A DNA stretch of 64,000 nucleotides from a virus, in IMG/VR virus record IMGVR_UViG_3300038393_000864, positions 1 to 64,000 of that record. One strand, 5' to 3'. Below, in pieces: positions 717-5,540 of the stretch. How positions within the stretch are numbered: the first letter of the stretch is position 1; each line of letters begins with the position of its first letter. The notes beneath the pieces were generated by a model that saw nothing but the letters and a program-made list of their open reading frames with translations, made no database searches and was not told the DNA's origin. The position numbers were made by a program, and so were the translations under genes.

Positions 717-738
717 ATAATTTTTGGCGGAGGTAAGA

Positions 739-1470
739 ATGGGTAAAAGACAGGATTTGACGGGTCAAAAGTTTGGGAAGCTTACGGCTGTAGAAGAGGC
801 TGGTAAGAATTCTAAAGGTACTTGGCAATGGTTGTGGGCATGCGATTGCGGAGGTACTAAGATTGCCGTCCCTGCTATTGTAAAAAATGGAAATACATCA
901 AGTTGCGGTTGTATTCGCAGGGAAGTTTTAGAGCAGCGAAACACAACTCACGGTATGAGTAAAAATTCAGCTTACTCAAACTGGAAAGATATGTTCAAGC
1001 GTTGCTACAACCCAAATAACAAACGGTACAAAGATTATAACGAGCGTGGGATCGGCGTTGACGACCACTTCCGTCATTTTCCAAATTTTCTTGAGGAGAT
1101 TGGAGAGAAGCCAAATGATGGACAAGTTTGGTCTGTTGGGCGAATTAATAACAATCTTGGCTACCAGCCGGGGAACATTCGATGGGAAACTCTTGCAGAG
1201 CAAGCTAGAAATCATTCCATGCAGAAAAACAACACGAGTGGTATCGTAGGAGTAAAACGCCAAGTTCAGACCAACAAGCATGGGACTTATATCAGTTGGG
1301 TCGCACACTATCGAGACGAGAACGGCAAACCAGTCACTAAAACGTTCAGCGTTAAGAAATACGGCGAAGAAGGCGCCAAGCAACTTGCAATTGAGGCCCG
1401 AGAAGCAGGCTTAAGAAAGTTGAAAGAGCACGGCATTGTGTACGCGGAAAGCCACGGCTCTGAAAAATAA
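739..1470 (+). CDS. free-standing homing-endonuclease-like protein, AP2 DNA-binding domain plus Cys cluster and degenerate HNH-like segment
   Basis: GGAGG lies 5 nt before the ATG at 739; the track start at 724 is TTG. AP2-like SGIVGVKRQ..YISWVAHYRDENGKPVTKTF..AIEAREAG. CDCG..SCGC cluster. VGRINNNLGYQPGNIRWETLAEQARNH resembles the HNH_3 tail but lacks the DH. Confidence 0.75.
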   Translation: MGKRQDLTGQKFGKLTAVEEAGKNSKGTWQWLWACDCGGTKIAVPAIVKNGNTSSCGCIRREVLEQRNTTHGMSKNSAYSNWKDMFKRCYNPNNKRYKDYNERGIGVDDHFRHFPNFLEEIGEKPNDGQVWSVGRINNNLGYQPGNIRWETLAEQARNHSMQKNNTSGIVGVKRQVQTNKHGTYISWVAHYRDENGKPVTKTFSVKKYGEEGAKQLAIEAREAGLRKLKEHGIVYAESHGSEK

Positions 1471-1475
1471 GGAGC

Positions 1476-3137
1476 ATGATGAATAAGAAACAAAAGATAG
1501 TGTTGGGGCCGGATAGCCCCACACATAAAAAGTTCTTAGATTGCACAAGTGATTATGTAATCTTCGGTGGTAAATGAAAGCTGCCTCCGTAAAATCTCTC
1601 TAATTCAGGGAAACTCTCTAGTAGACAATCCTGAGCGAAGCCTATTAAATAGGAACGTGCAACGACTAGCCGAAAGGCGTAGGGCTAAGCGGCCCGAAAC
1701 GGGAGACTCCGAAAGGATGAAGATATAGTCTGAACATTACAGCGATGTAGTGCTGCCTCTGGCGGGCTAAGTCTAGCGAGCTTAGTTGAACAAATGGGCG
1801 CAGGATGCGGAAAATCCCACCAAGCACTTTTGAAGGTGCTGAAATATAAAGACGATCCAAATTTCAAATGTGTTTTTATTCGCGAAACGTCAACACAGCT
1901 TTCACAAGCAGGCGGCTTGTATCAAGAGGCTGAAAAGATGTGGAAGCAATTTGGTGCAAAGTTCAAGACACACCCTCAAATGACTGCTACATTCCCTAGC
2001 GGAGCGCAAGTACAGTTCAAGGTTTGCGGAGCAGATCGGGATATTTCCAACTACGATGGTGGGCAGTTCTCCCTCGTCGTATTTGACGAGGCTCAGAATC
2101 ACACCGACGTTCAAATTAGGTATCTTGAGTCTCGTATTCGCTCTGAGGCAAAAGGACCGCATCAATTAGTGGCGACCTGCAATCCCCGCCGCGACAGTCA
2201 TCTAATGCCTTTTGTGTCGTGGTACTTGGACCAAGAAACAGGTATTCCTATTCCAGAGCGCTCTGGCGTTGAGAGGTATTATGCCTCTTATTGTGGGACT
2301 ATGGTATTCGGAGACACAAAAGAAGAACTGATGCAGAAGTATCCGGGGATATCGCCACAGAGCTATACGTTTATTAGCGCCACTATTCGGGACAACCCGA
2401 GGATGAAAGTACTCAATCCGGGGTATGTTGCTCGCCTTGAAAACCTGAAGCGTGTCGAACGAGAGCGTCTGCTGCTTGGCTCATGGTTCGCTAAAGAAGA
2501 ATCTTCTGGATATTTCAAACGAGAGTGGGTTGAAATTATTAAGAAATCCCCCGCCGAAGTTACAGCAAGATTCCGAGGAATGGACTTAGCAAGTACATTG
2601 GCATCCGAAAGTAACCCAAACCCGGACTGGACTGCATCAGTGCGAATCTCACGAGATAAATTCGGCTATTACATTGTAGAGCATGTTGAACGTTATCGCA
2701 AGCTGACTCATGGTGTTCTTGATGAAATTACGAAGAGATACTACGCTGACAAAGAGGAGCTTGGCAGGTCTGTTCCTGTAATTATCCCTAAAGACCCCGG
2801 CGCCAGTGGGGCACAGGCTAACGCATTCTTTATCAAAACGCTTGTAGAGCAAGGTGTTGATGCAAAATCTGAGATGGTTTCAGGTCATGCAGGTAAACTG
2901 GCAAGGATGCAACCGTTTCTATCTCTTGCTGAAGCTGGGTGGGTTAAGGTCGTAGAGGGCGATTGGAACGAATTATTCTTCAACGAGCTTGAAGATTATA
3001 TAGACGGAAACAGAAATCAGAAGGACGACATTTTCGATGCTACCGCGACCGCCGCAAAAGGGGTGATGAAAAATAACACCATCCCCTCCTTCTCCATTCC
3101 AACATTCTCAGCCCCATCCCCAATCCCCTCTACATAG
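1476..3137 (+). CDS. terL: terminase large subunit, split by a group I intron (exon 1 1476-1571, exon 2 1797-3137)
   Basis: Exon 1 encodes MMNKKQKIVLGPDSPTHKKFLDCTSDYVIFGG and hits TGA one codon later. Exon 2 starts GAGCGKSHQALL. The two are in the same frame, and the join restores GxxxxGKS. Walker B-like LVVFDEA lies downstream. The start could be 1479. Confidence 0.85.
1572..1796 (+). mobile_element. ORF-less group I self-splicing intron (td-like, IA2-type core)
   Basis: CTCTCTAGTAGACAATCC, ACGACTAGCC, and GAAGATATAGTCTGAAC (P7 GACTA/TAGTC). GNRA-capped hairpins. 3' end TTGAACAAATG with a terminal G; the 5' splice site follows U. Length 225 nt. Confidence 0.85.
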
Positions 3138-3201: not shown

Positions 3202-4695
3202 ATGGCGAAAAAGAAGCCTGAAGACAAGTCGGCTCTTAACGCCGATCAAGGTGCAGTGATTCCCCGTATGAGTTTGGCAGAGGTAGGTTTTACGAACCTC
3301 CGAGTGTCTAACGGTCTTATTATAGAAGACTGTAACGCTGCCTTCCGCTTCCCTGCATTCTTTCGCACGGTTGACGAAATGCGCAAGTCTGCAATTATCG
3401 CGTCAGCCCTAAACGCATACAAGATGCTGCTTTCCCGTGTAAAGTGGCATGTAGAAGCCCCAGTAGGAGCCACTGAAGAACAAAAAGCCCGCGCCAAGTT
3501 TGTTGAGTCCATTAAGGACGACATGGAAACTGGCTGGGAAGATTTTATTGGTGATGTCATTGAGTATCTTCCTTACGGGTACAGTATTCAAGAAAAAGTA
3601 TATCGTCGCCGTCTGCGCAAGAATGGTTCTCGCTACAACGATGGCCTAGTGGGCTTGCGCAAGATTGCACCACGTCCTCAACAATCCATCGCCCGTTGGG
3701 AATTCTCGGAAGATGGTCGTGACCTTCTGGCAGTGCACCAGTCTGTGCAAGCCCTTGAGCACAGTTACTTGTATCTCAGTCAAGCTACTGAAGACGGATA
3801 CATTCGTATTCCCCGAGACAAGTTCATGTTGTTCTCTGCCGATGCTACTCGTGGCAACCCTCTCGGTCATTCGATCTTGAAGGGAGTGTACGCGAGTTGG
3901 AAGCAGATGTCAATGCTTAAGGACCAAGAAATTCTTGGTATTGCTAAGGAGGCCGCAAGCCTTCCCCTTATTCGCATTCCTGCTAAGTTTATGTCTCCGG
4001 ATGCGGACGACAGCGAGAAAGCTGTGTATGAAGCAGCCAAGCAGATTCTTGAGAATGTTGCGAACGGTACTAGTAAAGGCATTGTATTCCCCACGTTCAT
4101 TGACCAAGACTCTAAGAAAGATATGTTTGACATCTCTTTGCTTGAGAAGAAGGGTTTGAACGGTGCCAACATCGATACAGTGATTCGTCGCTATCAGGAT
4201 GAAATTCTTTCTACGCTTGCTGTTGACATTCTTAAAGCTGGCAGCAATCCGGGTTCGTTCAGTTTGTCCGATGGTGACACTAACGTTCTTGCCCTTGCAA
4301 TGAGCCACAGGTTGAATGAGATTGCTGCTGTGCTGAATAATGATCTTATTCCGTCACTCTATAGGATGAACGGATGGATTGATGAGGTGCTACCTAAGTT
4401 TGTGCCTTCGGATATTAGCTCGGTGTCCATCGAAGAATTTTCCAAGGGTATCCAAAGGGCTGCTAGTACAGGCGTTCTTGAACTGGATCGTGAGGTTCTT
4501 AATAAGGTGCGTGTTGTTCTTGGCATTAGCCCGAAGCCTGAAGACGAGCCTGTTGACCACGAAGCTTTGACTACAAACGTTTCTAAATCTGGTGCTGGCA
4601 TGGAGCCGGGTACGACAGGAGATGGGACAAGTCGCATAGGTGGCAATTCTAGCGGGCAGGACAGGTCTACGAACAATTCAGAAAATAAAGGCTAA
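3202..4695 (+). CDS. portal protein
   Basis: 497-aa ORF directly after terL and before the prohead protease. AAGGAG SD. Size and position are typical of portal proteins. Confidence 0.8.
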   Translation: MAKKKPEDKSALNADQGAVIPRMSLAEVGFTNLRVSNGLIIEDCNAAFRFPAFFRTVDEMRKSAIIASALNAYKMLLSRVKWHVEAPVGATEEQKARAKFVESIKDDMETGWEDFIGDVIEYLPYGYSIQEKVYRRRLRKNGSRYNDGLVGLRKIAPRPQQSIARWEFSEDGRDLLAVHQSVQALEHSYLYLSQATEDGYIRIPRDKFMLFSADATRGNPLGHSILKGVYASWKQMSMLKDQEILGIAKEAASLPLIRIPAKFMSPDADDSEKAVYEAAKQILENVANGTSKGIVFPTFIDQDSKKDMFDISLLEKKGLNGANIDTVIRRYQDEILSTLAVDILKAGSNPGSFSLSDGDTNVLALAMSHRLNEIAAVLNNDLIPSLYRMNGWIDEVLPKFVPSDISSVSIEEFSKGIQRAASTGVLELDREVLNKVRVVLGISPKPEDEPVDHEALTTNVSKSGAGMEPGTTGDGTSRIGGNSSGQDRSTNNSENKG

Positions 4696-4703
4696 GAGGT
4701 TTT

Positions 4704-5540
4704 ATGGCGTTTGTGTATTGGATTAGGGCACCACACCACGTTGACATCTTCACAGAGGGTTATGTCGGTTTTACTAGTACTACTGTCGAAGACCGCATGA
4801 CTACTCATAAGTCGGACTCTGTGCGAGACAAGTGCAAGGACTACCCTATATATTGCGCCTTTCGCAAATATGGTGAATCGCTCGTCATTGAGACTGTTTT
4901 AGAGGGTGATAACGAGTACTGCCTTAATATTGAGTACAAGCTACGGCCTGAACCTAAGATCGGCTGGAATTTGCTATGTGGAGGTCAGCGTGGTTCCCTT
5001 GGGACAAAAGCCTCCATAGAGACTAGGCGAAAGCAGTCTGAATCTCGTAAAGGTGTTAAGAATCATTTCTATGGAAAAAGTCATTCCCAAGAATCAAAAG
5101 ATAAGATTTCTAAAGCAAAGGTGGGTAAGGTTTCTTGGTCTGAAGATCAGAGATTAGCGATGTCTGCAAAGCGTAAAGGAGTTAAGAAAAATCTTAGCGC
5201 GGAGACTCGTGCAAGAATGAGTGCAGCGTCCAGTGCACGGCGGCACACAGATGAATCGAAAAGAAAACAGTCTGAAGCTAAGATAGGGTTGTACTTGTGC
5301 TGGAATGGCCCAAAAGCTAACAAAGAGCTTTGGGCGTGTGCTGACAAAGCTTATGAATTTTTGCAGCAGCACCCTGATGCAGGAGAGCGTAAGCTGTCCG
5401 TTTTTGCTTGTGGTAAAGACTTTCAATGCAAAAAGCTTCTTGCTAAATTGCGGAGTGGTTGGAACCCCTCTGAAGACGAAAGCTGGCTTGCATTCAAAGC
5501 CAATTATGAAAAGGAAAGATATGGCACACAGCCTATTTAG
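4704..5540 (+). CDS. GIY-YIG homing endonuclease with NUMOD3-like repeats
   Basis: N-terminal VYWI..GYVGFTS..R..H core. Repeated basic K-S-H-S/E..K.K.S motifs (HFYGKSHSQESKDKISKAK etc). Wedged between portal and protease. Confidence 0.75.
   Translation: MAFVYWIRAPHHVDIFTEGYVGFTSTTVEDRMTTHKSDSVRDKCKDYPIYCAFRKYGESLVIETVLEGDNEYCLNIEYKLRPEPKIGWNLLCGGQRGSLGTKASIETRRKQSESRKGVKNHFYGKSHSQESKDKISKAKVGKVSWSEDQRLAMSAKRKGVKKNLSAETRARMSAASSARRHTDESKRKQSEAKIGLYLCWNGPKANKELWACADKAYEFLQQHPDAGERKLSVFACGKDFQCKKLLAKLRSGWNPSEDESWLAFKANYEKERYGTQPI

Follow-up and report, generated by a model that had tools for sequence, protein, structure and literature searches.

A group I intron in terL, the gene of the large terminase subunit, is known from Lactobacillus phage LL-H. 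Further examples come from Shewanella phage KASIA, where the intron was confirmed by reverse transcription PCR, and from Shewanella phages 1/4 and 1/40 (PMC8541194), and terminases are listed in a review among the typical targets of phage introns (PMC3984707). Here we consider a 64,000-nucleotide (nt) stretch of viral DNA, positions 1 to 64,000 of the IMG/VR record IMGVR_UViG_3300038393_000864 (hereinafter, the window), in which terL is interrupted within the codons of the Walker A motif (P-loop) by a 225-nt element at positions 1572-1796. According to the comparative data described below, this element is, with a probability of about 92%, a functional group I intron of subgroup IA2 that is similar to the td intron of phage T4, contains no open reading frame (ORF), and is spliced in phase 0 by joining position 1571 to position 1797. 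Coordinates of all features are collected in Table 1.

As in KASIA (PMC8541194), the large terminase gene is interrupted and its frame would be restored by splicing; in contrast, the KASIA intron contains an HNH endonuclease ORF and resides in the gene of an unrelated TerL, whereas no ORF of endonuclease size is listed within 1572-1796, so that the intron-encoded endonuclease of a homing intron is absent from the 225 nt. A literature search for a terL group I intron at the Walker A position yielded no report, which is weak evidence of absence. Group I introns in terL are already documented, and the one described here is a clean example that is unsurprising to a specialist.

The assignment to group I was made with the Rfam covariance model RF00028 (Intron_gpI), a check proposed in an earlier sequence-only reading of this DNA. 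The model matches the plus strand at 1535-1752 over its full length (model positions 1-253) with 78.2 bits and E-value 3.6e-18, the gathering score being 50 bits. The 64-kb window has no further Rfam matches at E <= 0.05, and no second intron was detected by this permissive scan. The edges of the match differ from the ends of the intron, as it starts 37 nt inside exon 1 and stops before P9.1 and P9.2; the placement of P1 and P2 within exon 1 by the model was rejected as a forced fit to a sequence lacking P2. All core strings quoted in the sequence-only reading are present (CTCTCTAGTAGACAATCC at 1614-1631, ACGACTAGCC at 1662-1671, GATATAGTCTGAAC at 1722-1735, and TTGAACAAATG at 1786-1796), and its P7 pairing, GACTA/TAGTC, coincides with the Rfam consensus. 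The GNRA-capped helices it listed were confirmed in part: CCGAAAGG, found at 1670-1677 and at 1709-1716, forms such helices, while CCCGAAACGGG (1693-1703) is present but is not a hairpin, with its CCC and GGG assigned to the 3' strands of P7.2 and P3, respectively, in agreement with the td comparison.

For that comparison, a T4-type td intron from the phage collection, with the I-TevI ORF removed, was aligned globally with gap-tolerant scoring, and the resulting percentage is approximate: 168 of 225 positions of the window intron are identical (~75%), in line with the resemblance to td noted in the sequence-only reading. Near-identical blocks comprise P4-P5 (CUCUCUAGUAGACAAUCC), P7 (ACGACUA/AUAUAGUCUGA), the region from P7.2 through the 3' strand of P3 (GUAGGG..AAG...CGAAACG..AGAC), and P9.2 with the 3' tail (GGGNUAAG..UA.CGA.CUUA..UGAACA.AAUG); another long identical block extends from the joining segment J8/7 through the 3' strand of P7. 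A U precedes the 5' splice site and a G is the last nucleotide in both introns. Unlike td, the window intron has no I-TevI ORF, a mini-hairpin of five base pairs (bp) at P6a, no P2, and a P8 of 3 bp with a GAAA loop, being 225 nt long compared to ~1 kb in td (~270 nt without the ORF); it also has another host gene, terL rather than td, and a different guide sequence. The spacer between P1 and P3 comprises 5 nt (1590-1594), and a P2 of the td/Twort type is absent, which we take as a sign of a reduced variant and not as a ground for exclusion from IA2. The IA-type hallmark helices P7.1 and P7.2 are present and co-varying, and given the identity of ~75% to td, the label "td-like IA2" is correct.

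Among deposited phages, the best DNA matches of the intron are small IA-type introns of SPbeta (bnrdE), Twort, K-like Staphylococcus phages, polymerase genes of T4-like phages, and Vibrio phage S4-7. The small ORF-less IA2 introns of the Gram-positive phages (SPbeta bnrdE, Twort, K-like phages) and the intron of Vibrio phage S4-7 have 68-79% identity over 55-83% of the window intron, with similar size and core, and also occupy conserved enzymes; however, they sit in other genes (ribonucleotide reductase, structural, and DNA polymerase genes), and none in a relative of the window genome. The best full-length match, from Vibrio phage S4-7 (L099, KX507046.1, 122948-123159), is flanked by parts of a DNA polymerase gene whose annotation comprises three separate coding sequences, overlaps a "hypothetical protein" on the opposite strand, and is apparently unannotated.

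Conservation of the fold was analyzed on 83-91 kb metagenomic contigs of the same lineage (80 retrieved out of more than 300 related ones). Six other distinct introns were found at the identical site (L009/L010, L012/L013, L014, L015/L016, L019, and L097), each scoring 66-91 bits with the Rfam model, so that the seven introns including the one from the window have lengths of 216, 222, 225, 225, 226, 230, and 232 nt. The structure, derived by hand from the window sequence, consists of P1, P3, P4, P5, P6/P6a, P7, P7.1, P7.2, P8, P9, P9.1, and P9.2. Imposed on the alignment of the seven introns, it leaves 95.4% of cells paired, compared to 31-44% after the 3' partners are shifted by 1-3 columns; both sides have changed in 15 of the 57 pairs, and the observed values were not reached in any of 500 column shuffles. 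Compensatory changes are located in P4 (two doubly compensated pairs, AU to GC and GC to UA), P6a (two pairs), P7.1, P7.2, P9 (five of seven pairs changed on both sides), and P9.2 (three of six). The P5 region is identical to that of td; P6a, where td carries the I-TevI ORF, contains no ORF. P7, the helix to which guanosine binds, makes a pseudoknot with P3. Thus, the group I fold is conserved by covariation in this set of introns.

Two side observations concern the same set. P7.1 has been naturally deleted in L014, whose 216-nt intron (1370-1585) nevertheless scores 72 bits with Rfam. Also, the 8-mer GCTGCCTC occurs twice in the window intron, in the P10/P1 guide (1580-1587) and in the 5' strand of P9.1 (1752-1759), and is partly conserved in the relatives; this may be due to chance or to alternative pairing.

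The splice sites are predicted at 1571/1572 and 1796/1797, as fixed by covariation between the guides and the exons at synonymous positions in both P1 and P10. Exon 1 ends with GGT GGT, followed by AAA and the stop codon TGA at 1575-1577, and its last codon encodes the Gly with which the Walker A motif begins. Its end is complementary to the internal guide sequence at six of seven positions. Five loci have C-G as the seventh pair (Phe codon TTC, guide ending with CCG) and two have U-A (TTT and CCA, respectively), that is, the last base of the guide co-varies with the Phe codon of the exon. Similarly, the third pair of P10 is C-G in the window, L014, and L097, G-C in L012, and A-U in L015, L009, and L019, and tracks the third, synonymous position of the codon for Gly33 (GGC, GGG, or GGA). 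All seven introns begin after a U and end in G, as had been noticed for the window, and in all seven GAACA is followed by 3-7 variable nucleotides and the terminal G. The GGT GGT end of exon 1 is fixed in seven out of seven alleles with this intron site and is found in six out of 48 intron-less alleles (Fisher's test, p = 8e-6, relatedness not corrected for), as expected if the synonymous sites are under constraint from P1.

The GGU GGU repeat admits one more register of the same intron, with the 5' splice site one codon upstream, after U1568, with P1 formed by GGUGGU and GCUGCC, and with a product, IFG/GAGCGKS, shorter by one Gly. Here U1568 would wobble with G1583, the minimum free energy (MFE) fold by ViennaRNA selects this register, and GGAGCGKS still fits the GxxxxGKS pattern. 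Yet its sixth pair, U1571 with N1580, is broken in four of the seven loci, while N1580 co-varies perfectly with exon 2 as a part of P10, and the covariation of C/U1565 with G/A1589 fits the 1571 register only. Moreover, all 48 distinct intron-less alleles in the fetched loci have three residues between F/Y30 and A34, with no allele and no full-length homologue having fewer. Taking all this into account, we consider splicing after U1568 to be very unlikely and retain the junction after U1571.

Joining 1571 to 1797 would yield a TerL of 478 amino acids (aa), ...TSDYVIFGG/GAGCGKSHQALLKVLKYKDDPNF..., where the Walker A motif GxxxxGKS is G32-G33-A34-G35-C36-G37-K38-S39 and the intron is located between the codons of Gly32 and Gly33. 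This protein contains the Pfam domains Terminase_6N (E-value 1e-22) and Terminase_6C (7e-11). A homologue search in 5.8 billion proteins demonstrated that the junction ...DYVIFGG/GAGCGKSHQALL is the sequence of uninterrupted metagenomic homologues with identity up to 93%: P0001 carries exactly ...TSDYVIFGGGAGCGKSHQALLKVLKYKDDPNF..., and IFGGGAGCGKS is observed in P0001-P0004 and dozens more. The sequence-only reading had proposed the junction FGG/GAGCGKS, with the first Gly supplied by exon 1, and had suggested an alignment with intron-less TerL; the alignment reproduces the intact P-loop residue for residue, and the spliced protein spans 99-100% of the length of these homologues. Forty full-length homologues all have G31, G32, A34, G37, and K38, and nearly all have G33. 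Among cultured phages, the nearest TerL proteins are those of the Pseudomonas phages related to PAK_P3/KPP10, with ~40% identity and an alignment that is unbroken at the junction. No close match to the terL region or to the genome of the window was found in 50,697 phage records, where only the intron core matched other introns; a scan of genome assemblies yielded only short contigs of metagenome-assembled genomes (one binned as Pedobacter, 55% identity) and no usable host call.

The downstream ORF as called starts at ATG 1794 and encodes 447 aa, MGAGCGKS..., with the domains Terminase_6N and Terminase_6C; homologues extend beyond its N-terminus, and the sequence-only reading was right in considering it a truncated ATPase. 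It could still be supposed that no splicing occurs and that the locus produces a 33-aa peptide and a 447-aa protein from ATG 1794, or that ribosomes bypass the 225 nt. The ATG is in frame, the gap length is a multiple of three, and gene calls starting at MGAGCGKS exist (P0005, P0007, P0009). However, each of these calls that was traced to DNA, P0005 (L014) and P0007 (L012), has the same intron upstream. ATG 1794 is missing in four of the seven same-site loci, being replaced by GCG in L009, TTG in L015 and L019, and ACG in L097, and the sequence upstream of it contains no Shine-Dalgarno motif, which together indicate that this ATG is a coincidence. A 447-aa protein would be left without the beta-strand of the P-loop and without its first Gly, and the gap has a textbook ribozyme fold. 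The sequence-only reading gave the length correctly and remarked that it is a multiple of three, which is coincidental because the lengths at the same site vary and the intron contains seven in-frame stop codons. We regard production of two polypeptides or bypass as hardly credible compared to splicing of the td-like intron.

The 32-codon upstream ORF with a good Shine-Dalgarno motif, noted in the sequence-only reading, is indeed exon 1, although its start needs a comment. ATG codons are present at 1476 and 1479, and the AGGAG is separated from the former by 1 nt only; hence, the true start may be the second ATG, 1479. The N-termini of homologues are MTKKQK, MNNKKQK, or MKKQK.

Several observations weigh against a functional td-like intron. 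Splicing is deduced from sequence. Stability alone does not mark the region, as the MFE z-score relative to shuffled sequences is -0.23. P3, P5, P7, and P8 are invariant in the seven introns and hence provide no covariation evidence; support for these helices comes from the Rfam model and from the similarity to td. As the seven introns are related, fewer independent events took place than the compensatory-cell counts suggest. Finally, P5 and P8 comprise only 3 bp each, P9.1 is paired in 76% of cells, and P1 contains a U-U mismatch (1568/1586).

Such short helices, together with the lack of P2 and of an encoded maturase or endonuclease, would also suit a decayed relic that does not splice, in which case terL would be a pseudogene or depend on a helper or a second terL copy. 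Against this stand the pairing maintained by compensatory changes in seven diverged copies, the guide sequences following synonymous changes in the exons, and both exons being open, with 81-87% protein identity to relatives over the full length. In addition, a tailed phage cannot do without terL, and the ORF list, which was not screened systematically, showed no obvious second gene of terminase size. A relic thus seems very unlikely. For the functional intron speak a core scoring above the Rfam threshold, compensatory changes, a U-G pair at the 5' site, the omega-G together with P10, and restoration of the frame.

The proposed course of splicing is as follows. In the pre-mRNA, the exon-1 end CGGUGGU (1565-1571) would pair with the guide GCCUCCG (1583-1589) to form P1, in which U1571 and G1583 would make a wobble pair where cleavage occurs. 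P7 would bind an external guanosine, which would attack 3' of U1571; the guide GCU (1580-1582) would then hold the beginning of exon 2, GGC (1797-1799), as P10, and the free 3' OH of U1571 would attack 3' of the terminal G1796. Ligation of the exons would produce the mRNA for the full 478-aa TerL, ...IFGGGAGCGKS..., with catalysis presumably provided by 1572-1796 itself.

The P-loop codons of this TerL family are interrupted repeatedly. Mapping about 100 related loci by tblastn, together with Rfam scans, revealed at least four intron positions in the P-loop within a span of five codons (sites 1-4 in Table 1), the guide sequences of the introns at sites 2-4 being adapted to each position. The introns of L027-L029, L101, and L102 are below the Rfam threshold and have a guide sequence in common; the site-3 introns (L017, L098) retain a td-like P2 hairpin. 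For L033 (2659-2935) no consistent boundaries could be set, since keeping Ala34 requires a 5' site after G, while U...G boundaries delete this invariant residue. Other interruptions of terL were mapped to query residues ~71/72, 126-129 (near Walker B), 213-231, and 285-290, in more distant relatives (L036, L040, L053, L055/L056, L086, L087, L089, L091, L093). L089 contains three Rfam group I introns in one terL, and L040, three interruptions.

The same motif is also occupied by inteins, found at GK/S or GK/T of Walker A in P0034, P0054, and P0106 (L024). These inteins are 228-335 aa long, start with Ala (ALKHGEKVLTP...), and finish with ...VTHN. This is the classic P-loop intein site of terminase large subunits, as in mycobacteriophage TerL1-a, between the Lys and Thr of Walker A (PMC5050341). 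Hence, inteins and the window element are alike as self-splicing parasites of this terminase motif; however, the intein is spliced at the protein level, in frame, six codons downstream, whereas the window element would act as an RNA ribozyme. Nor can the latter be an in-frame translated insertion, given its in-frame stops and the lengths of the relatives, which are not uniformly multiples of three.

Spread of the ORF-less intron may involve the neighboring genes. Immediately upstream of exon 1 lies an endonuclease-like ORF that matches Pfam AP2 (E-value 9e-12) and the PHROG family phrog_374, "HNH endonuclease" (6e-53). Its homologues adjoin terL in the intron-bearing loci L097 (79% aa identity), L012, L021, and L034, and also in the intron-less L008; in other genomes, this slot contains different endonuclease-like ORFs (PHROG families 681 and 953). 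An endonuclease-like ORF adjoins terL in nine of 12 loci with P-loop introns and in two of seven intron-less loci (p = 0.07, relatedness not corrected for), hence the association is suggestive only and not significant. In the two closest intron-bearing alleles, L014 and L097, exon identity to the window is 84-89% within ~75 nt of the junction and 70-78% further out, a modest signal that is compatible with co-conversion tracts; the other intron-bearing alleles have no clear gradient of this kind.

Collaborative, or trans, homing, a mechanism reviewed in PMC3984707, links an ORF-less intron with an adjacent free-standing endonuclease, as in cyanophage S-PM2 (psbA with F-CphI) and T3/T7-like phages. 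Likewise, the window has an ORF-less intron at a conserved site with an HNH-type ORF ~100 nt upstream of the insertion, making this ORF a possible trans-acting homing partner; it is a candidate only, and in L008 it is present without the intron. The intron may have spread by recombination between co-infecting phages, perhaps helped by a free-standing endonuclease. One could imagine that the Walker A codons are contested in conflicts of co-infecting phages, the HNH or other endonucleases upstream of terL cutting the P-loop DNA of intron-less competitors and the introns and inteins serving as immunity, since they disrupt the target, and as hitch-hikers copied by repair, through collaborative homing that would have occurred repeatedly and independently at this motif; we offer this as a tentative scenario, rather doubtful at present.

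An additional ORF at 4704-5540 on the plus strand (278 aa), which separates the portal gene (3202-4695) from the morphogenesis gene that follows, has NUMOD3 motifs and PHROG matches to homing endonucleases. It looks like a second free-standing endonuclease insertion, because in L012 the S49 protease gene directly follows the portal gene. No tRNA genes were found in the 64-kb window. Among the intron-less loci, L018 (18-1436) is 96% identical to the window in the last 75 nt of exon 1, including GGT GGT GGC GCA, and represents either precise intron loss or an unoccupied (naive) target of the same lineage; alleles similar to that of L018 differ from the window at GGA/GGT a little further downstream.

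Table 1. Features of the interrupted terL locus, predicted intron elements, and mapped P-loop intron sites. The slash marks an insertion point.
Feature	Position	Strand	Details
Endonuclease-like ORF (HNH/AP2), free-standing	724-1470	+	248 aa; ends 5 nt before terL exon 1
Shine-Dalgarno-like AGGAG of terL exon 1	1470-1474	+	direct sequence reading
terL exon 1	1476-1571	+	32 codons, MMNKKQKIVLGPDSPTHKKFLDCTSDYVIFGG, ...SDYVIFGG; residues 1-32 of intron-less homologues
P1, exon strand	1565-1571	+	CGGUGGU; pairs with 1583-1589; 6 bp and one U-U mismatch over 7 positions
Predicted td-like IA2 group I intron, ORF-less	1572-1796	+	225 nt; Rfam RF00028, covariation, td similarity
P10 guide	1580-1582	+	GCU; pairs with GGC of exon 2 (1797-1799); directly 5' of P1 guide
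Internal guide sequence, P1 strand	1583-1589	+	GCCUCCG; CUGCCUCC invariant in 7/7 loci
P3, 5' strand	1595-1600	+	UCUCUC; pairs with GGGAGA (1701-1706); invariant in 7; compensated relative to td (UCUAUC/GAUAGA)
P4 enclosing P5	1605-1634	+	P4 1605-1610/1629-1634; P5 1615-1617/1623-1625
P6/P6a mini-hairpin	1635-1658	+	P6 1635-36/1657-58; P6a 1641-45/1649-53
P7, 5' strand	1664-1668	+	GACUA; pairs with UAGUC (1726-1730); invariant in 7/7; Rfam consensus GACUA...AUAGUC
P7.1 and P7.2	1669-1678 and 1682-1695	+	P7.1 GCC-GAAA-GGC; double changes in one pair of P7.1 and two pairs of P7.2
P8 and J8/7	1708-1717 and 1718-1725	+	P8 UCC-GAAA-GGA, stem invariant; J8/7 UGAAGAUA, as Rfam consensus
3' peripheral domain	1735-1786	+	P9 1735-1752 (GNRA loop GCGA), P9.1 1753-1765, P9.2 1766-1786
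3' tail	1787-1796	+	UGAACAAAUG; omega-G at 1796; predicted 3' splice site after G1796
Predicted ligated junction	1571 to 1797	+	ATCTTCGGTGGT/GGCGCAGGATGCGG
terL exon 2	1797-3137	+	GAGCGKSHQ... through stop codon
P-loop site 1	FGG/GAGCGKS		window and six other distinct introns
P-loop site 2	FGGG/AGxGKS		L021, L026, L034, L029, and one lineage seen in L027, L028, L101, L102
P-loop site 3	inside Cys36 codon, T/GC		L017, L098
P-loop site 4	Gly35/Ser36		L031/L032, L040

The interruptions have consequences for annotation. Among the 120 best homologues from the protein collection (P0001-P0120), 47 are complete at the N-terminus, 70 begin at the P-loop or downstream of it, and three carry inteins; the truncated calls traced to DNA (P0005, P0006, P0007, P0010, P0011, P0020) all result from P-loop introns. 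Truncated TerL calls are a systematic mis-annotation caused by introns that were not modelled. As gene callers truncate TerL in this way, terminase phylogenies and analyses of ATPase motifs in this lineage inherit broken proteins unless the introns are modelled.

An intron in the P-loop of terL does not overturn the current understanding. The seven variants at the same site, 216-232 nt long and one of them without P7.1, form a natural series indicating how small a td-type ribozyme gets, and the locus demonstrates guide sequences co-evolving with synonymous codon positions. Adjacent intron positions and inteins in one motif make this TerL family a clean case for selfish elements converging on the most conserved DNA.

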